DNA from: Klebsiella phage Sugarland
Strand: one strand, 5' to 3'
Length of the DNA: 64,000 bases
Sequence record: NC_042093.1
Shown: piece after piece, positions 54,100 to 61,660 of the stretch
How positions within the stretch are numbered: the stretch's first letter is position 1
How the letters are laid out: the number at the start of each line of letters is the position of its first letter
Made by a program: the position numbers and the translations under genes
Notes under the pieces: generated by a model
What the model saw: only the letters and a program-made list of their open reading frames with translations
Told to the model about the DNA's origin: nothing
Database searches by the model: none

Positions 54100-54162
54100 T
54101 GCGATCTCCTTAGAGGTCTACAGAGGGTCAAATTTCGACCATGTTTATCAATTTAGAATACC

Positions 54163-54191
54163 AGTATACCAAGTTTTGGCGTGGATTGCAA
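54163..54191 (-). promoter_or_regulatory. early promoter TTGCAA-17-TATACT
   Basis: minus strand. Confidence 0.45.
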
Positions 54192-54357
54192 CTGAAATTT
54201 TCTAGGATGATATGGAGGACGGATCCTTTCCTTTATTCGCGCGATGCGCGGGCGCACACGAATAATATAAAATGAGGGAGATAAGCAAATAAAATTTTCC
54301 AGTTTTTATTGTTTTGATGATCCAGATCAAGTTACTGTTGATTATAATAAAATAAGG

Positions 54358-54386
54358 TTGACATGGCTGTGTCTATTTGATATAAT
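54358..54386 (+). promoter_or_regulatory. perfect-consensus sigma70 promoter TTGACA-17-TATAAT
   Basis: plus strand, 20 nt upstream of SD CTGGAGGAA of nrdD. Confidence 0.65.
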
Positions 54387-54408
54387 ATATGCCTAACTGG
54401 AGGAATAT

Positions 54409-56238
54409 ATGAACGAATTAGACCTGATTGATAATATCTATAGTATCCTTGATAATGAGGGTGAAGAAGACCTTATGTTTAATAATGCTAATAAGGCAAG
54501 CGAGCAGTTTCCTACACAGAGGGACATGATAGCTGGAGAGGTTTCTAAATATGTGGTAGCACAGGAGCTTCCAGCATACCTATTGACGGCGCATAATAGA
54601 GGAGAGATACACATTCACGATATGGACTACCGCGCACAAGGGTATACTAACTGCTGCCTAGTGGATCTAGCGGGGATGTTTAAGAATGGAACTAAAATTG
54701 GTGGAGCAGAGATTGAAACTCCAAAATCTATCTCTACTGCAGCTGCGGTAACTGCCCAAGTTATTGCCCAGGTAAGCTCGTGTCAGTATGGGGGTACGTC
54801 TATCGATCGTATTGACGAGGTCTTTGCCCCGTATGTCCGTAAGTCCTACGATAAGCACTTAGCTATTGGCCAGCGTTGGCTGCACGATAGTAAGAAGGCA
54901 GCAGTGTATGCTACTGAGATGACAGAAAAAGAAGTATATGATGCGTGCCAGGGACTAGAGTACGAAGTTAATACACTATTCAACTCTAATGGTCAGCAGC
55001 CATTTGTGACATTTGGGTTTGGTCTAGGAGAATCCTGGGAGGCACGCATGTTGCAGAAAGCTATGCTGGAAGTTCGTATAAGAGGCCTGGGTGCTTCAGG
55101 GCATACTGCTGTATTTCCTAAACTTATTTTCGCAGTTAAGGAAGGACTCAATAAGTCCCCAAGTGATCCTAACTACGATATCAAACAGCTGGCGCTCATC
55201 TGCACTTCTAAGAGAATGTACCCGGATTACGTGAGCTATGAAAGAGTATCGGCTGTTACGGGCGATTTTAAGTTCCCTATGGGTTGTCGGTCTTTCCTTT
55301 CGGCTATTGAATCAGGGGAAACTGCTGGGCGCAATAACCTAGGAGTTGTATCCATTAACCTGCCGCTAGTTGCTGTAGAGTCTGAGGGATGCTTCGATAG
55401 GTTCTGGAAGTTGTTGGATGAATACATTGATAAAGCGATGGCTGCCCACGATTGGGCTATTGAGCGGTTGAAGCGTGTTCGTGCTAAACAGGCACCAATT
55501 CTCTATATGCACGGAGCTTTTGGGGTACGGTTGAAAGCCAATGATCTTGTATGGCCCATCTTTGAAGGCAGGGCATCAGTGTCTTTGGGATATATCGGTA
55601 TTAACGAGGTGATTGAGGTAATGTTTGAAGATACCGACCCTATGTCTCCACCTGCGGTTGAATTTGCAGTACGGGTTCTTAATCACATGAAAGACCGTTG
55701 CAACAAAAAAGCTGAGGAAACTAATCTAGGATTCAGTCTTTATGCTACTCCTAGCGAATCCTTATGCAATAGATTCAACACTAAAATTGCCGAACAGTAT
55801 CCGGAGTATGACTGGCTAACGGATAAAGGCTACCTGACTAATAGTCACCACCTGGATGTCCGTACAAAAGTTGCCCCTAACGTGAAGTTTGACTATGAAG
55901 CTAATTTTACTACCATCGCCAATGGGGGTAATATATCCTTTGTAGAACTTCCTGAGATGCGTAAGTTTATCTCTGCACTAGAGTGGGTTGTTGACTATGG
56001 ATTAAGTAAGTCCCACTACATAGGGGTCAACATTCCAGTTGATGAATGTGAGGAGTGCGGGTATTTAGGCGAATCCGTATCCGGAGAGCATGGTTTTGTA
56101 TGTCCCCAATGTGGGTCGGGGAATATCTCAGTTACCCGTCGTGTTTGTGGGTACTTAGGTAGTCCTGGTAGTAGACCCTTTAACCCTGGTAAGCAACAGG
56201 AAGTAATGCAAAGGGTCAAACACATGAATTTGAAATAA
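54409..56238 (+). CDS. nrdD: anaerobic ribonucleoside-triphosphate reductase
   Basis: 609 aa; C-terminal glycyl-radical motif TRRVCGYLGS and CxxC...CxxC zinc site. Confidence 0.85.
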   Translation: MNELDLIDNIYSILDNEGEEDLMFNNANKASEQFPTQRDMIAGEVSKYVVAQELPAYLLTAHNRGEIHIHDMDYRAQGYTNCCLVDLAGMFKNGTKIGGAEIETPKSISTAAAVTAQVIAQVSSCQYGGTSIDRIDEVFAPYVRKSYDKHLAIGQRWLHDSKKAAVYATEMTEKEVYDACQGLEYEVNTLFNSNGQQPFVTFGFGLGESWEARMLQKAMLEVRIRGLGASGHTAVFPKLIFAVKEGLNKSPSDPNYDIKQLALICTSKRMYPDYVSYERVSAVTGDFKFPMGCRSFLSAIESGETAGRNNLGVVSINLPLVAVESEGCFDRFWKLLDEYIDKAMAAHDWAIERLKRVRAKQAPILYMHGAFGVRLKANDLVWPIFEGRASVSLGYIGINEVIEVMFEDTDPMSPPAVEFAVRVLNHMKDRCNKKAEETNLGFSLYATPSESLCNRFNTKIAEQYPEYDWLTDKGYLTNSHHLDVRTKVAPNVKFDYEANFTTIANGGNISFVELPEMRKFISALEWVVDYGLSKSHYIGVNIPVDECEECGYLGESVSGEHGFVCPQCGSGNISVTRRVCGYLGSPGSRPFNPGKQQEVMQRVKHMNLK

Positions 56239-56511: not shown

Positions 56512-57344
56512 TGCGTAGATTGATTATCGTAAGTGGTGCTGGATTGAGTGCTGATAGCGGAGTGCCAACGTTCCGTAAGGGTGCCATCACTCCCCTGTGG
56601 GATAAATACAAGCTAACCGAAGTATGCAACATTCAGGCATTCGATAAAGGGTTTCACTATCTGGACGACCCTATGCCTCCGTTAGAAGCCCTTTCTGAGG
56701 GATCTGATGATGAGCCTAGTCGCAACCTGTACGAGCTAACCCATGAGTTCTACAACATGCGGCGGCAGGAGCTGGGTACGGTGGAGCCTAACATTGCTCA
56801 CCTGAGAATTGCTGAGTGGTATGAGCGCTTCCCTGGTCAAGTCGTTAACTTTACTACTAACGTGGATGATCTGCTAGAGCGTGCTGGCATTCCCCATGAT
56901 GATGTGATCCATGCTCATGGCTACCTTACGGAGATAATGTATCGCCGAGGTAAGGATGTGATCGTGGAAGATATCGGGTATACTGCGGTTGATTACCGTA
57001 AGTATGAGTGGGTTAAGCCTGCGATTACGTTCTTCGGGGAAACCGCTCCGTGGTATATGGGGCAGATCAACCTGTTTGATACCTTGACAACCCAGGATCT
57101 GGTAATCGTTGTTGGTGCCAGTAACCAAGTAATCGATTTTAATTGGGAGCTATTTCCGGCCCATAGTCGAGGTACTAAAGTGTGGGTAGTAAACAACGGT
57201 ATTAACTACCTGGAGCAGAGTTTGTACGAAGAACGCGGGATCCCCGTTTGGTATGATACTGCTGCCAATGTATTTAGCAACAAACATTTCATAGGTCAAG
57301 TTGAGGCTTGGCTGGAGGAGAAAATTTATGTACCATCCCGATGA
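56511..57344 (+). CDS. Sir2-family protein lacking the zinc-ribbon cysteines
   Basis: GAGLSADSGVPTFR, TTNVDDLLERAG, IHAHG, VVGAS motifs; no Cys between the HG and GAS motifs. Confidence 0.65.
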   Translation: MRRLIIVSGAGLSADSGVPTFRKGAITPLWDKYKLTEVCNIQAFDKGFHYLDDPMPPLEALSEGSDDEPSRNLYELTHEFYNMRRQELGTVEPNIAHLRIAEWYERFPGQVVNFTTNVDDLLERAGIPHDDVIHAHGYLTEIMYRRGKDVIVEDIGYTAVDYRKYEWVKPAITFFGETAPWYMGQINLFDTLTTQDLVIVVGASNQVIDFNWELFPAHSRGTKVWVVNNGINYLEQSLYEERGIPVWYDTAANVFSNKHFIGQVEAWLEEKIYVPSR

Positions 57345-57492
57345 TATCCTGTTATGGCCCAACGGTAGTTGGTGTTATCGCAGTGATGTACAAGATATGA
57401 GTCACCTATCGGACGACTATCAGGTTTTACGAGCGGACTCTGAGCAGTGGCACGAATTCATCCAAATGGGGGAAGAATATGCTGGTCAATGA
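57328..57492 (+). CDS. small hypothetical protein
   Basis: start at MYHPDDIL with SD GGAGGAGAAAATTT. Confidence 0.35.
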   Translation: MYHPDDILLWPNGSWCYRSDVQDMSHLSDDYQVLRADSEQWHEFIQMGEEYAGQ

Positions 57493-57880
57493 AAAGGTTG
57501 TTAATCAAGGGGTTGGGCTAGTTCCCTGGGCTGAAATTCCTCTGGACGTAAAAGAGTCTCTTCTGGACCATCTTCGTGTGTGGTGCGATAATATGGAGGT
57601 CTACTTCGATTATGACAACATGCACCTGGGGCTATGGGTTCCTATGGACGAAGATCAAGATGAAGTCCTAGACTGGGGCGATCTGACTGAGATGGGGCTG
57701 GTATTTGCGCTAGGCTACGTGTGTCTGCTGCGTGAGTCCTATATCCCGGTTGGTGTTACAGGTGTTTCAGCAGGTATTTGGGTCGGACGTAATGAAGATT
57801 ATTATGCTCCGGAAAATATTAACGGTTGGATCCAGGTGCTGCGTCGCTTCGGTTTCCAAGTTGAAGGGTTAACTAAATGA
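57479..57880 (+). CDS. hypothetical protein, paralogue A
   Basis: 133 aa; shares W(A/E)(E/D)IP, DW(G/D)DL(T/S)(E/D)(M/L)GL and YAPE motifs with the next ORF. Confidence 0.5.
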   Translation: MLVNEKVVNQGVGLVPWAEIPLDVKESLLDHLRVWCDNMEVYFDYDNMHLGLWVPMDEDQDEVLDWGDLTEMGLVFALGYVCLLRESYIPVGVTGVSAGIWVGRNEDYYAPENINGWIQVLRRFGFQVEGLTK

Positions 57881-58272
57881 GTATTCCTAAAATGGAACGT
57901 ATCTCCTGGGCGGATATCCCCAAGGAATTGATTGATGTAGCAGAGAATCTGCTGCGAGCCGCGTTGAGGGACGAGGAGCTTTGCTTCATCATCCAGCATG
58001 ACGTGTGTGTAGGCTTGTCCAAAGGCAGTTTGGCCCAGGATTACGAGATCCTCTTTGATTGGGATGACCTCTCGGACTTGGGGCTAATGGTTCTGGTGAA
58101 CAACGTTGTGTTCCACCCCTCTAATTTTGCAGCATTCCGTGAACCGGGGGCAGGTATTTCTCCGGGGTTCTTGGTAGCTGACGAGCCTTGGACGTATGCT
58201 CCAGAGGTTCTTCGTGAGGGCAAACAAAATGCCTCTTCTAACTCGATTAATATTATGGGTTGGAATGCCTAG
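57877..58272 (+). CDS. hypothetical protein, paralogue B
   Basis: 131 aa; ATGA overlap with paralogue A. Confidence 0.5.
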   Translation: MSIPKMERISWADIPKELIDVAENLLRAALRDEELCFIIQHDVCVGLSKGSLAQDYEILFDWDDLSDLGLMVLVNNVVFHPSNFAAFREPGAGISPGFLVADEPWTYAPEVLREGKQNASSNSINIMGWNA

Positions 58273-58282
58273 TTGAACACTT

Positions 58283-58312
58283 AGACCAGGGGATTATCCT
58301 CTGGTCTTTTCT
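58283..58312 (+). terminator. intrinsic terminator
   Basis: AGACCAGGGGATTATCCTCTGGTCT then TTTCT. Confidence 0.5.
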
Positions 58313-58354
58313 ATGCTTAAACCCAGTTACCTACCACGTATTTAAATATTTTAC

Positions 58355-58383
58355 TTGCAATCTCGCCACGATTTTTATATAAT
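58355..58383 (+). promoter_or_regulatory. early promoter TTGCAA-17-TATAAT with AT-rich UP element
   Basis: plus strand; 480-nt leader follows. Confidence 0.6.
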
Positions 58384-58870
58384 ATATTCATAGGTTGAGA
58401 GAAATGATGTGAGTTACAAAACTGACATAATTCCTCTCATTCACTTCCGAGCATACAGAACAGTCCGGCTGCTACATGCTTGGTTGGGTTTGGCTTATTG
58501 GGAAATTGATTCCGAACGGAATTATAGATAATTGATCTAGAATGCGGGTAAGAGAGGTTGGCATCGCGAGGCTCTCAGATATTTGTTCGTTAGTCATGTG
58601 GAGCAAATAGCACCGCGGTCTGAAATGACCAAGAAGTGAAGCTGTAAGTAGCAACGTGCCTCTGCGCAATAGCGACGAATAGGGGTCAACCACATGGAGC
58701 TTAGCGGCGATTACATGCTGTGTGGGAGTTGTGCGAAGCGGCCAGTTCTAGCAATGAGGAAGTGACCACCCCTCCATCTATAAGGAAATTTGTTGAGTCA
58801 GTGGACTTTTAAGCTGTTCTATCCTTGATAGTTCGAGATCGCTTTATTCTTCAACATAGGAGAAAACGTA

Positions 58871-61660
58871 ATGTTTTCTATTCTAGAAGGACACGCGGGT
58901 TTTTCCCGCGATCCCGCTTCCGGCAACTGGAAGGAAGTGAAAACAACTGATTACCTTTTTGCGAAGGAGTTTTCTAACGAGCATCCAGAAGGTAAACCAG
59001 CCTCAATGCCCTACAAATTTAACGTAGTGGATACGGTTGACCCCAAAAATCTTAATGAAGCGTATGAGCTGATGGTTCAGCTCACTCAAGATCCACATCT
59101 CGTAGCAGTACGAGGTACATGCTTAGTTGCAGAGAAGGCCGTGCGTCGTAAACGTACTAACTTCAAAATCGACCATAAGAGCAATATTATTGCTATGGAC
59201 GTCGATGGAATCTCTGATACCGGAGGATGCGGCAGGTTTGACATTGTGGGTATGGGACGTCATGTCATTAAGTTATTAAACAGCATCAGCGAGGACATGT
59301 TCCCGCTTAACGCAGGGTTTATTGCCCATGCGTCGTCTTCGGCTGGGATTAAGCCGGGGATTCGTATGCACATGCTATTAGAGAGTAATATTCCTGTTAC
59401 TCAGGGTCAGTTAAAGTTTCTATTTACGTCCCTCAATGATAGCTCTCGGCAGAAGTATGGTTTTGATATTGCCGACTTAGCTTATTATTCATCTGTACAG
59501 CTACACTATTTCGCTGACCCGATTTTTCGGGATCAGTTTACCGATCCGTTTAAAGCGGAGGGTAAGCCACGTCTGGTTAAAGTTAACGGTGCTAGGATTG
59601 AACTGCCCAATACTATGCCAGATTATGAAGCCACTCGCGGGGAGTTTAAAGAAGAGTTTCTATCTCTGCTCAATCAGATTAAAGGAAAGCGTGTAGCCTC
59701 TGAAAAAGTGGAACAAACCATTGCAGAGCTGGAAGAAGCAGAGGATGGTGTTTATCTGCGTATTATTCCTAAACTGTACCACAGAGCGCTGGAGGACGGT
59801 GTTGATTTCGCCTGGCTTGAGAAAGAGATTACCTCAGCTCTGTCCGATTATATCAACACGAAGGACAACTCCCGTAGTCTTCAGGATTATTTTAATAACG
59901 GGCGTAAGCAGGCGTTAAAAGCGTTTGTGAACAACTCTATGCGAGATATTCCTGAGTCTAATGTTAAAGGCGTTCCTGTGCACAAGTTGACCTCTGATAG
60001 CCCCGATGGGATGAACTATTTGAAGATCAACCGTCCACCACCGGAAGGTCATTTAACATTTATCAAGGCTTCCCTAGGTACTGGTAAAACCACCGCAGTG
60101 ACGAAGTGGCTAGAACGTGATCAGCTGAAAGGTAATTTCCTTGCAGTTACGAACACACGTGCCCTTGTTTCATCTAACGCCAAGAAGTTTGAAGCCGGAC
60201 AGTATGATAAGTCTGTAGATATGTTAAACTTCAAGCGCGGTGCCATTGATCGTATGTCTACTACTATTCACTCAATCCACAAGTTTAAAAACTTTGTTGG
60301 GCAGATCGATGTTATCTTTATCGATGAGTGCGATGCAGTCATGAATGATCTGTTATTCGCCCCAGTTGTTAAACAACGTCGTGAGTGTATCTCAGTTCTT
60401 CGTGAAATTCTGCTATCTGCAAAAGTAGTTATCCTGTCTGACGGGGATATCAGTGCAGAAACCATTGAGGCATATGGATCTCTCATAGATTTTGACAAGC
60501 CGGTCTCTTATTATAAACACCATCGTAAGATGCTCTCGGATGCTCAGGCGTATGAGTTCCCGGATGAATCCAGTATTTGGGTTGCTCTCCAAACGTCCCT
60601 AGAGATGGGGGAGAAATCTATTCTGGTATCCGACTGTGGGCCAGATGAGTTAAACGAGAAAGGCCTGACGCTAAGAAACAATACAGGTGCGATTGTTAAA
60701 GAGATTCACTCAAACTCTACCTCTGATATAGATATTCGTCGTATTTTGGATTATACAACGAATGAGTTAATTGAGCAGCAGATTGATTGCCTGCTGTGTA
60801 GTCCGTCAGTAACGAGCGGCGTTGACTTCAACTACTTCGATAACGTGTTTGTTATCACTCGTACCGCTAACCAGGCGCCGAACATGCGCTTCCAGGCAAT
60901 CAGGCGCGACCGAGGAGCTAAGAATATCTTCTATTTCATCGATAAGTCCACCAGCGGATTCTCTGCGGGTTCGGAGCAGTATAACATCGATGAGGGTTGG
61001 CTAGACTTAGCTCAGCAGCTGTATGTTAAACGTCGTGAACTAGAGTCCCGTAACTTTATCAGCACATTACGATACTATCTGCTAGATCAGGGGGCAACTA
61101 TCGATATCTTCAGTGAAAGCTGGGGCAAGATTGATAGCTCAGCCGCAGAGTATACTGCCGAGCGAGTTTCTGCTATTTTGAGCAGTACCCCAGATTGGTG
61201 TGCACCCCGTCATGCGGATGCATACGAAGCCAAGCTAATGCTGGTCAAGTATTTCCACCTGGACTCTATCAAGAGTATCACACAGGAACATGCGGAGATG
61301 TGGATTAGTAAGAAACCACACAAGCGGGCGGAGTTCTTCCATAAACTCCAAGATATATTCTGGAAGGATATTAAGAAGTGTTCTAACGTGACGATTAGTC
61401 CATTTATCGAAGCCCTGAAGAAACACAAGAAGGACTTCTTTATTAGGACAGGACAGTCTGCCAACCCTAAATATGCCCGTATGTACCTAACCCAAATGGG
61501 TATTAATAAGGAAATGGAAACGGAGCAGATCGTAGACTGGTATCGAACCTACTGCTCTATCGAGGGTATCTCTGTACCGTATGAGTTTATGACGGATGAG
61601 GAGAAGGCGCTGGCTGATGAAGCGCAAAACGAACTTGGAGTACGTAATGAGCAAGCGTGA
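58871..61660 (+). CDS. SF2 helicase-like protein (putative replication origin-binding protein)
   Basis: 929 aa; Walker A ASLGTGKTT and DExx VIFIDECD in the central region; SD AGGAGAAAACG. Confidence 0.55.
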   Translation: MFSILEGHAGFSRDPASGNWKEVKTTDYLFAKEFSNEHPEGKPASMPYKFNVVDTVDPKNLNEAYELMVQLTQDPHLVAVRGTCLVAEKAVRRKRTNFKIDHKSNIIAMDVDGISDTGGCGRFDIVGMGRHVIKLLNSISEDMFPLNAGFIAHASSSAGIKPGIRMHMLLESNIPVTQGQLKFLFTSLNDSSRQKYGFDIADLAYYSSVQLHYFADPIFRDQFTDPFKAEGKPRLVKVNGARIELPNTMPDYEATRGEFKEEFLSLLNQIKGKRVASEKVEQTIAELEEAEDGVYLRIIPKLYHRALEDGVDFAWLEKEITSALSDYINTKDNSRSLQDYFNNGRKQALKAFVNNSMRDIPESNVKGVPVHKLTSDSPDGMNYLKINRPPPEGHLTFIKASLGTGKTTAVTKWLERDQLKGNFLAVTNTRALVSSNAKKFEAGQYDKSVDMLNFKRGAIDRMSTTIHSIHKFKNFVGQIDVIFIDECDAVMNDLLFAPVVKQRRECISVLREILLSAKVVILSDGDISAETIEAYGSLIDFDKPVSYYKHHRKMLSDAQAYEFPDESSIWVALQTSLEMGEKSILVSDCGPDELNEKGLTLRNNTGAIVKEIHSNSTSDIDIRRILDYTTNELIEQQIDCLLCSPSVTSGVDFNYFDNVFVITRTANQAPNMRFQAIRRDRGAKNIFYFIDKSTSGFSAGSEQYNIDEGWLDLAQQLYVKRRELESRNFISTLRYYLLDQGATIDIFSESWGKIDSSAAEYTAERVSAILSSTPDWCAPRHADAYEAKLMLVKYFHLDSIKSITQEHAEMWISKKPHKRAEFFHKLQDIFWKDIKKCSNVTISPFIEALKKHKKDFFIRTGQSANPKYARMYLTQMGINKEMETEQIVDWYRTYCSIEGISVPYEFMTDEEKALADEAQNELGVRNEQA

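Follow-up and report, generated by a model that had tools for sequence, protein, structure and literature searches.

A conserved, highly structured RNA leader precedes the D2-type helicase gene of T5-like phages

Organization of the helicase locus

The window analyzed here is a stretch of 64,000 nucleotides (nt) from the genome of Klebsiella phage Sugarland (NC_042093.1). It harbors a gene for a superfamily 2 (SF2) helicase, the homolog of T5.108 of phage T5, and directly upstream of this gene lies a leader of roughly 480 nt that follows an early promoter. We report that this leader constitutes a non-coding RNA domain of ~430-480 nt that is conserved and highly structured. The 651 bases around it are 100% identical to the sequence of Klebsiella phage Spivey (MK630230; Demerecviridae, Sugarlandvirus) and at least 95% identical in 77 other Klebsiella phages. 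In all comparisons below, "Spivey" denotes the window's own leader sequence, with coordinates given as window positions; a window coordinate equals the coordinate in the Spivey record MK630230.3 plus 254, so that the two do not begin at the same base, perhaps through a different permutation or assembly.

In the Spivey record the upstream operon encodes a class III ribonucleotide reductase, a Sir2 protein and two small genes and ends in an annotated terminator, which the T5 record also has at the equivalent place. Between this terminator and the ribosome-binding site of the "putative replication origin binding protein" the Spivey record carries no annotation. The terminator stem is maintained in phage Eos by compensatory changes (ACCAGGGG/CCTCTGGT vs ACCGAGGG/CCCTCGGT), and the terminator-promoter pair is thus itself conserved as a unit.

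A preliminary description of the region, made from the sequence alone, had placed a TTGCAA-17-TATAAT promoter about 480 nt upstream of a 929-codon helicase gene and had seen no convincing open reading frame (ORF) between them. This layout stands: the promoter is present, the ATG is at 58871, 487 nt from the -10 hexamer, and the longest plus-strand ORFs of the leader have 40, 30 and 23 codons, none of them credible. The leader is not, as had been stated, GC-richer than its surroundings. Its GC content is 0.446, compared with 0.452 for the window, 0.482 for the upstream genes and 0.450 for the helicase gene, and the AT-rich part is only the 110-nt spacer between terminator and promoter (0.351). 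The repeated segments that had been pointed out, CATGTGGAGC and CACATGGAGC, do exist as 10-mers (58595-58604 and 58691-58700, 8/10 identical), but such pairs occur at chance level, with 33 10-mer matches of at most two mismatches observed in the window and 42 ± 7 expected. The pair is not among the repeats reported by a repeat search of the region, and its members sit in different hairpins of the fold described below, one in the loop and 3′ strand of P3 and the other in the 5′ strand of P5.

No further plus-strand promoter-like site and no terminator-like site was predicted between the promoter and the start codon of the Spivey leader, which leaves 58355-58383 as the only predicted promoter serving the helicase gene. 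The alternative that transcription starts close to the helicase start codon finds no promoter-like site there in Spivey.

Covariation supports a plus-strand RNA fold

The minimum free energy (MFE) of the whole Spivey leader has a z-score of only -1.04, so folding of this single sequence alone would not have flagged it. Structure prediction across homologous leaders, which the preliminary description had proposed as a check, reveals abundant compensatory base changes on the plus strand. For the main test, the RNAalifold structure was scored on an unguided MAFFT alignment of eight lineages and compared with 500 shuffles and with slid controls. This structure has 67 pairs in ten helices, and 41 of the pairs show compensatory changes. 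The paired cells amount to 86.6% (72.5% in shuffles), 42 of the 67 pairs are changed on both sides (22.7 ± 3.0 in shuffles) and the covariation score is 0.502 (0.251 in shuffles); none of the 500 shuffles reached any of these values. Structures slid by one to three columns scored at most 0.148.

The same holds for a smaller part of the leader. On a MAFFT alignment of P5 with its mini-hairpin and D3, the covariation score is 0.564, compared with 0.206 in shuffles (0/500). A covariance model built from the P5/D3 alignment gives one plus-strand match per T5-like locus and, over the 64-kb window, a single match on the plus strand (58686-58793, 89.6 bits). When 14 distinct sequences were realigned to the model, P5 showed 91% pairing, with changes on both sides in 8/8 of its pairs. 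An alignment of hand-picked helix excerpts joined by artificial spacers shows 100% pairing, which is biased by construction, and was used only for pair types; its unbiased counterparts are the two MAFFT tests, of the whole leader and of P5/D3. About 12 helices persist through compensatory changes, two nested long-range helices among them, and we have little doubt that a conserved plus-strand RNA fold exists.

The signal is strand-specific. RNAalifold predicts 67 pairs at -28.6 kcal/mol for the plus strand and 36 pairs at -17.5 kcal/mol for the minus strand, and the plus-strand structure contains 83 G.U cells against 14 A.C cells, with several invariant U.G pairs. Together with the conserved promoter and a hairpin at the predicted transcription start, this strand-specific pairing points to RNA of the plus strand. 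The MFE of the whole leader also differs between strands (-140 vs -113 kcal/mol), but was discarded as strand evidence: flanking coding windows are equally biased, with differences up to -48.

Covariation cannot separate RNA from single-stranded DNA of the same strand, and taken alone it would be compatible with either. The hairpins could accordingly form in single-stranded plus-strand DNA, for example in a displaced strand, and act as a landing site for the helicase with no role for RNA, on the model proposed for the oriS* hairpin of herpes simplex virus (HSV) and UL9. The helicase domain does match the Pfam family Herpes_ori_bp (residues 395-534). We nevertheless consider such an element very improbable. 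The G.U pairs, abundant and partly invariant, are strong in RNA, whereas the corresponding G.T pairs of DNA are weak; long-range helices of 200-330 nt would demand extensive unwinding, and the promoter is conserved at a fixed distance, with the 5′-terminal hairpin beginning at the predicted transcription start. The reverse complement of 58731-58738 (GUGCGAAG) is CTTCGCAC, which resembles the core of UL9 box I. By chance, a 7-mer match of this kind is expected with a probability of ~0.06, and T5-type leaders do not conserve the motif; the likeness is probably a coincidence.

Architecture of the fold

The model for Spivey comprises 87 pairs in 17 helical segments (Table 1). With these pairs enforced the fold has a free energy of -126 kcal/mol, compared with an unconstrained optimum of -140. 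From the 5′ end, the hairpins P0 and Pb are followed by the nested long-range helices P1, which closes ~320 nt, and P2, which closes ~205 nt; the core consists of P2a, P3, P4, P4b and P5, and D3 and D4 lie 3′ of P2. In nine lineages P1 spans 312-332 nt and P2 spans 200-214 nt.

Table 1. Features of the helicase leader and its immediate surroundings in the window.
Feature	Position	Strand	Remarks
Intrinsic terminator	58283-58307	+	closes upstream operon nrdD-Sir2-DUF7415; 11-bp (base pair) stem, then T-run
Sigma-70-type early promoter, TTGCAA-17-TATAAT	58355-58383	+	10/12 consensus matches; predicted start ~58390
Whole leader, structured non-coding RNA domain	58390-58870	+	87 modelled base pairs
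P0, long 5′-terminal hairpin	58396-58439	+	right after the predicted transcription start; inverted repeat
Pb, hairpin	58447-58483	+	conserved core AUACAGAACAGUCCGGCUGCUACAU
P1, outer long-range helix	58491-58497 with 58810-58816	+	UGGCUUA/UAAGCUG
D1, hairpin	58509-58522	+	AUUCC-GAAC-GGAAU; clear in Spivey and Eos (GAAAUC/GAUUUC), weak in other lineages
P2, inner long-range helix	58537-58542 with 58746-58751	+	CUAGAA/UUCUAG
P2a, hairpin	58552-58576	+	GAGAG...CUCUC; compensatory GAGAU...AUCUC at same place in Eos
P3, hairpin	58582-58607	+	UUUGUUC-GUUAGUCAUGUG-GAGCAAA; contains first 10-mer; inverted repeat
P4, hairpin	58617-58630	+	GGUC-UGAAAU-GACC
Conserved unpaired block	58631-58656	+	AAGAAGUGA...GUAAGUAGCAACG; 3′ of P4
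P4b, hairpin	58659-58685	+	CCUCU...AGGGG; in MFE fold; CCUCC/GGGGG in Eos, CCCU/AGGG in phiR201
P5, hairpin	58690-58725	+	CUUAGCGG at 58700-58707 in a mini-hairpin closed by U.G; contains second 10-mer
Conserved junction	58726-58738	+	GAGUUGUGCGAAG; shared unchanged by Spivey and Eos; similar sequence in phiR201 and L223
D3, hairpin	58755-58775	+	(U)GAGG-AAGUGACCACC-CCUC(C)
D4, hairpin	58819-58831	+	CUAUC-CUU-GAUAG within conserved GUUCUAUCCUU motif; last hairpin before the ribosome-binding site
Shine-Dalgarno sequence AGGAG of helicase gene	58858-58862	+	annotated ribosome-binding site
SF2 helicase, 929 amino acids	58871-61660	+	T5.108 homolog ("D2", "replication origin binding protein")
Annotated hypothetical ORFs, 30-40 codons	58260-58382, 58409-58531, 58720-58812		many Sugarlandvirus GenBank records; probably spurious

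At the 5′ end, P0 reaches 88% pairing; both sides have changed in 7 of its pairs, and its helix-presence p is 7e-4. Pb reaches 100% pairing, and 5 of its pairs have changed on both sides; its core is nearly invariant in 8 lineages and its outer stem covaries (CCGAGCAU/AUGCUUGG in Spivey vs ACAAUCC/GGGUUGU in T5).

The long-range helices differ in sequence from lineage to lineage. P1 is UGAUCUG/CAGGUUG in Eos, UAACUAUUAC/GUAAUAGUUG in T5, UAACUGUUAC/GUAACAGUUG in leaders of the DT57C type and GGUUAUUAUAU/AUAUAAUAACC in My1, and its presence in eight lineages has a p of 1.4e-8 against shuffles. P2 takes seven sequences: that of Spivey, UUGGGU/AUCCAA, CUGUGU/GCACAG, CUGCGU/GCGCAG, CUACAU/GUGUAG, CCAUAU/GUAUGG and CUACAC/GUGUAG.

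Within the core, the equivalents of P3 are CGUUC/GAGCG in Eos, AGCUC/GAGCU in the T5 type and a 12-bp stem in phiR201, and the P4 stem covaries as GGUC/GACC, UGGC/GCUA, GGAG/CUCC, AGAG/CUCU and AGGG/CCCU. P4b is the only stretch where blastn links Spivey to phiR201. The CUUAGCGG sequence in P5 is invariant in 11/11 aligned lineages, and a G-C pair of its mini-hairpin becomes A-U in My1. D3 takes the stems GAGG/CCUC, UGGGG/CCCCA, AGUGG/CCACU, AUAUG/CAUAU, UUAGG/CCUAG and AAGGG/CCCUU; it is statistically the weakest helix (66-73% paired, helix-presence p = 0.2). The D4 stems include CCAUC/GAUGG, CUAUUC/GAAUAG and CUUUCC/GGAAAG (p = 5e-4). A kissing interaction between the loops of P3 and D3, which are complementary in 5 lineages, was unsupported (individual p = 0.03-0.36).

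Distribution among T5-like phages

The terminator-promoter-leader layout is common to T5, AKFV33, DT57C, phiR201, Eos, My1 and DU_PP_V, and a long gene-free gap precedes the helicase homolog in every T5-like phage examined. In the T5 record, a terminator and a promoter are followed by 472 bases without annotation up to T5.108; this gap lies at 48.5-48.9% of the 121,750-bp genome. The gene-free region measures ~600 nt in Eos, ~495 nt in AKFV33 (counted after the annotated promoter), 717 nt in DT57C, 713 nt in phiR201 and 820 nt in Proteus phage 1, and, in Vibrio phages, ~1100 nt in JSF10, 840 nt in KIT04 and ~860 nt in D420, with only ORFs of 29-55 codons in the last.

The distances of the landmarks to the start codon are constrained. 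In Spivey, Eos, My1, DU_PP_V and two leader types of Tequintavirus, the promoter block TTTTACTTGC...TATAATAT precedes the start codon by ~480-506 nt; in DT57C, phiR201 and the IMG/VR phages L223 and L224 the distance is ~600-625 nt. The promoter is annotated independently in the AKFV33 and T5 records. The landmark AUAC(G/A)GAACAGU..GGCUGC keeps a fixed distance of -406 to -432 from the start codon, and CUUAGCGG one of -170 to -186. The preliminary description had named a lack of conservation of the leader as a ground for refutation; position, length and secondary structure have in fact all been kept.

Leader identity to Spivey is 67% in Eos and 45-50% in other lineages, and blastn with the Spivey leader matches only Sugarlandvirus and Eos. 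No leader-like sequence was found in plasmids or E. coli genomes. A pattern scan of viral contigs returned the same T5-like contigs; in a metagenome scan, among at least 120 stretches listed, 2 are genuine leaders and the other 118, which do not have the CUUAGCGG landmark at the expected distance, look like chance matches.

Homology in sequence and structure is solid for Sugarlandvirus, Eos, Tequintavirus, the Epseptimavirus phiR201, My1 and DU_PP_V. Farther out, L223 and L224, which have a 59%-identical helicase, harbor a 615-nt leader with a Spivey-type core (GCUUAGCGGCGAAUCAUG...GUGCGAAG), and the P5/D3 covariance model scores E = 0.2 in L223 and E = 0.03-0.16 in L224. Proteus phage 1 has a similar hairpin (CCACGUAUG-CCUUAGCGGG-...AUAUCGUGG) with a weak model score (E = 1.8). 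For Vibrio phages the best score (L235, E = 0.004) falls on the minus strand and cannot be trusted; the Vibrio leaders show no blastn similarity among themselves and cannot be aligned to one another or to the leaders above. Given these weak scores and the missing similarity among Vibrio leaders, homology beyond Markadamsvirinae, Sugarlandvirus, My1 and DU_PP_V is unproven.

Proteus phage 1 also differs in its promoters. Its locus (L007) has two sigma-70 promoters with perfect 12/12 matches: that at 1205-1233 opens a leader of ~760 nt, and that at 1935-1964 sits only 36 nt before the helicase gene and overlaps GUUCUAU, a motif found directly after P1 in other phages.

Near-identical Tequintaviruses carry two versions of the ~300 nt in the center of the leader, the part enclosed by P2, from about -400 to -100 (L005/L010 vs L004/L020/L026). 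The ends of the two leader versions are 88-96% identical and their central parts show no alignment at all; the DT57C version resembles that of My1 and DU_PP_V, and the T5 version that of phiR201 and Spivey. This pattern suggests that the central RNA domain has been swapped as a module by recombination. In AKFV33 (L004, 1015-1467) a homing-endonuclease gene is inserted between the T5.107 homolog and the leader promoter, and the leader is intact.

Short ORFs in the gap

Many Sugarlandvirus GenBank records annotate hypothetical ORFs of 30-40 codons in this region. One of them spans the terminator and the promoter, and the other two lie inside the RNA fold (Table 1). The ORFs of 40, 30 and 23 codons in the gap are interrupted by a frameshift or stop in Eos, and the substitutions between Spivey and Eos are spread evenly over the three codon positions (16/15/19, 7/16/13 and 7/5/3), so that no conserved reading frame with an excess at third positions is found for the leader ORFs in this pair. 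A peptide common to Spivey and Eos, MELSG(D/G)YMLC(G/T)SCAKR, was rejected as a candidate; it shows no codon-position signal and is absent from T5-type leaders. The annotated ORFs are probably spurious. Since they have been called in dozens of records of therapeutic phages, their removal would correct genome annotation.

These ORFs bear on one explanation of the gap, that it holds nothing beyond a decaying spacer or small protein genes of the kind found in some GenBank records. Three ORFs of 30-40 codons annotated in several records and the unremarkable MFE z-score are what this explanation has in its favor. It is hardly tenable against ORFs that are neither conserved nor biased by codon position, covariation far above both shuffled and slid controls, and the conservation of length, landmarks and helices across phage genera.

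Absence from known RNA families

The 4227 models of Rfam 15 give no match at E <= 1 in 57000-60000. A search of the leader alone at E <= 10 returned only a meaningless SNORD41 match (14.5 bits), and six related loci gave no relevant match. ARAGORN found no tRNA or tmRNA genes in 57500-59500. Look-alikes of conserved RNase P RNA segments (ACAGAAC..CCGGCU, AAUAGGGGU, GGUAAGAG and GAGGAAGU) suggested a (possibly permuted) RNase P RNA, for which Rfam gives no match at E <= 10. This candidate was rejected because the CR-V-like block forms its own hairpin (Pb, 100% paired) and has no complement in the CR-I-like loop with which to form the P4 pseudoknot of RNase P.

The traits of large non-coding RNAs, namely a length above 400 nt, many covarying helices and an association with phages, are all present in this element, which is found only in T5-like phages. 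Searches of the published literature returned no description of the leader. We rate this large structured leader or non-coding RNA as a new family, for which the leader alignment provides a seed.

The helicase gene and its neighbors

Phage T5 is a classic model phage. T5 replication is nevertheless poorly understood, according to Wong et al., who described T5.108 ("D2") as a bipolar SF2 helicase and proposed that it acts as replication initiator (PMC3632103); the region upstream of the gene is unmentioned in their paper. The helicase protein of Spivey is ~78% identical to those of T5-type phages, compared with 45-50% for the leaders.

The first ~380 residues of the helicase have no Pfam or PDB sequence match. 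Within this N-terminal domain (58871-59300), the motif IIAMDVDG resembles hhhDhD, a motif of archaeo-eukaryotic primases, and the label "DNA primase" is given to the protein in some records; a primase reading of the domain gained nothing from searches of Pfam and of PDB sequences. The motif (G)UUCUAUYCU just 3′ of P1 (58810-58828) recurs at helicase codons 2-4 (58869-58887; 74% over 19 nt), and the duplication is also seen in T5-type phages. It could represent a shared protein-binding site or the remnant of an old gene-start duplication.

Directly upstream of the leader in most lineages are two genes for paralogous DUF7415 proteins (57479-57880 and 57877-58272), the homologs of T5.106 and T5.107. 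The label "RNA-binding protein" that the Spivey record gives to the second of these finds no support from Pfam, PHROGs or PDB sequence searches.

Possible functions of the leader

The preliminary description had offered a replication origin, a cis-regulatory RNA or a small RNA as explanations. The comparative evidence strongly supports the RNA options, but an element of ~430-480 nt with ~12 helices is not "small". Our leading, though tentative, interpretation is that the leader is a cis-acting domain controlling helicase expression. It forms a conserved structured 5′ untranslated domain, on the sense strand and immediately before the gene, and continues into the helicase coding region with no terminator predicted. 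Three points put this interpretation first: fold and gene are predicted to be co-transcribed, no terminator is predicted between them, and most lineages keep a fixed spacing to the start codon. The conserved early sigma-70 promoter would produce a leader-helicase transcript, whose 5′ hairpin may stabilize the helicase mRNA. The folded core could be a platform to which a ligand binds, or a protein of phage or host origin, perhaps the helicase itself; binding would then set the amount and timing of the helicase and in this way gate the start of phage DNA replication.

Several observations weigh against control in cis. No conserved expression platform is found: each of the 8 lineages has a different predicted pairing partner for the Shine-Dalgarno sequence, and there is no terminator in the leader. 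The Shine-Dalgarno sequence is predicted to be largely paired in Spivey, and a clear alternative pairing is seen only in DU_PP_V. In Proteus phage 1 the second perfect promoter lies downstream of the long leader, 36 nt before the helicase gene, so that in this phage, at least, helicase expression might not require the leader. In L223, L224 and the Proteus phage the conserved core is separated from the start codon by an additional 100-230 nt. Known translational operators are far simpler than a fold of ~12 helices. Finally, transcription start, read-through and RNA processing are what we infer from sequence.

The second Proteus promoter, which separates the leader from the helicase gene, would also suit a free-standing large non-coding RNA that is processed from the transcript and acts in trans, as a ribonucleoprotein scaffold, an anti-defense decoy, a ribozyme or a self-assembling "ornate" RNA. 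The position upstream of the helicase would then merely reflect the conserved gene order of T5-like phages. With ~12 helices, nested long-range helices and invariant unpaired blocks, the element is like GOLLD and ROOL (PMC12286853, PMC5737381); its central domain is exchanged as a module among close Tequintaviruses, and leaders are much longer elsewhere (~760 nt in the Proteus phage, with putative counterparts in gene-free gaps of 800-1070 nt at the same position in Vibrio phages). An independent RNA is nonetheless rather unlikely in our view, since no terminator or defined 3′ end is predicted before the helicase in Spivey, the T5 type or the Proteus phage, the distance from fold to start codon is tightly kept within Markadamsvirinae and Sugarlandvirus, no large-RNA family of Rfam matches and no tRNA genes are adjacent.

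A further possibility, to which we assign a slightly lower probability again, is that transcription from the promoter activates or primes the main T5-type origin, with the transcript acting as a pre-primer or forming an R-loop. The adjacent helicase might recognize the folded transcript or be loaded on it; ColE1 RNA II and the origins of T7 and T4, which depend on promoters, offer parallels. In 1976, Bourguignon et al. reportedly used electron microscopy to place an early bidirectional origin of T5 near the middle of the genome, and the T5 element is itself near the middle. A promoter ~500 nt upstream and a structured transcript recall ColE1 RNA II. The link to the helicase gene persists despite the gene's own promoter in Proteus phage 1, which fits a cis-acting replication element better than a translational operator. 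Moreover, the element always adjoins the gene of the proposed replication initiator (PMC3632103).

Against this, known promoter-dependent phage origins manage without an elaborate RNA fold, and the tests run gave no support to the origin option. Neither repeated initiator sites nor a GC-skew switch at the leader, the classical marks of an origin in double-stranded DNA, were found. There are no iteron-like repeats, only two-copy direct repeats of low identity, and no minus-strand promoter-like site is predicted in 58384-58870. The cumulative GC skew has its minimum at ~52-54 kb, and the skew itself is positive on both sides of the leader; the turning point lies some 4 kb upstream, at 54.1-54.4 kb, where gene orientation also flips, rather than at the leader. 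Genes lie on the minus strand up to 54099 and on the plus strand from 54409, and the divergent region between them (54100-54409) is an alternative candidate origin. More doubtful still is the specific proposal that the fold is the RNA component of a T5-like primary origin, a pre-primer or loading RNA recognized by the D2-type helicase for a bidirectional start in mid-genome. If true, it would constitute an RNA-guided initiation mechanism, of which none is known to have been described for any tailed phage.

Comparison with known systems

To our knowledge, few RNA folds exceed 400 nt and contain nested long-range helices, and those described before have turned out to be unusual in their biology or structure. 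The fold described here is conserved from the Klebsiella Sugarlandvirus to T5, Yersinia phage phiR201 and Pectobacterium phages. Under any of the readings it would be new for T5-like phages, whether as post-transcriptional control of the initiator helicase, as an origin RNA or as a large phage non-coding RNA. A fold supported by covariation in front of the gene of a proposed initiator also provides a concrete object to mutate.

Four kinds of known systems invite comparison. In the HSV-1 oriS/UL9 system, UL9 recognizes a structured, hairpin form of its origin. The protein adjacent to the T5-like leader shares the SF2 helicase domain of the UL9 type (PMC3632103). Unlike oriS, however, the leader has no palindromic origin, AT-rich spacer or repeated binding boxes, and its signal is one-stranded and fits the pairing rules of RNA.

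ColE1 RNA II has a promoter ~500 nt upstream of its site of action and is a long transcript with conserved secondary structure beside replication functions, as is the case here. The leader differs from it in that no promoter for an antisense RNA I is predicted, the transcript enters a protein gene and there is no relation in sequence or in Rfam.

Riboswitches, T-boxes, ribosomal-protein leaders and the operators of T4 genes 32 and 43 are, like the present element, conserved sense-strand 5′ untranslated folds directly before a gene, and a 5′ hairpin such as P0 is typical of stabilized phage and bacterial mRNAs. The T5-like leader is 2-10x larger than these structured mRNA leaders, has no conserved terminator or anti-Shine-Dalgarno platform and is tied to a helicase gene, not to metabolic or ribosomal genes.

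The large RNAs GOLLD, ROOL, OLE and HEARO (PMC5737381, PMC12286853) differ from the leader, which matches none of their covariance models, has no tRNA neighbors, is embedded 5′ of one gene and has been found only in T5-like phages. What it shares with them is a length above 400 nt, many helices with nested long-range pairings, conserved unpaired blocks and carriage by phages.

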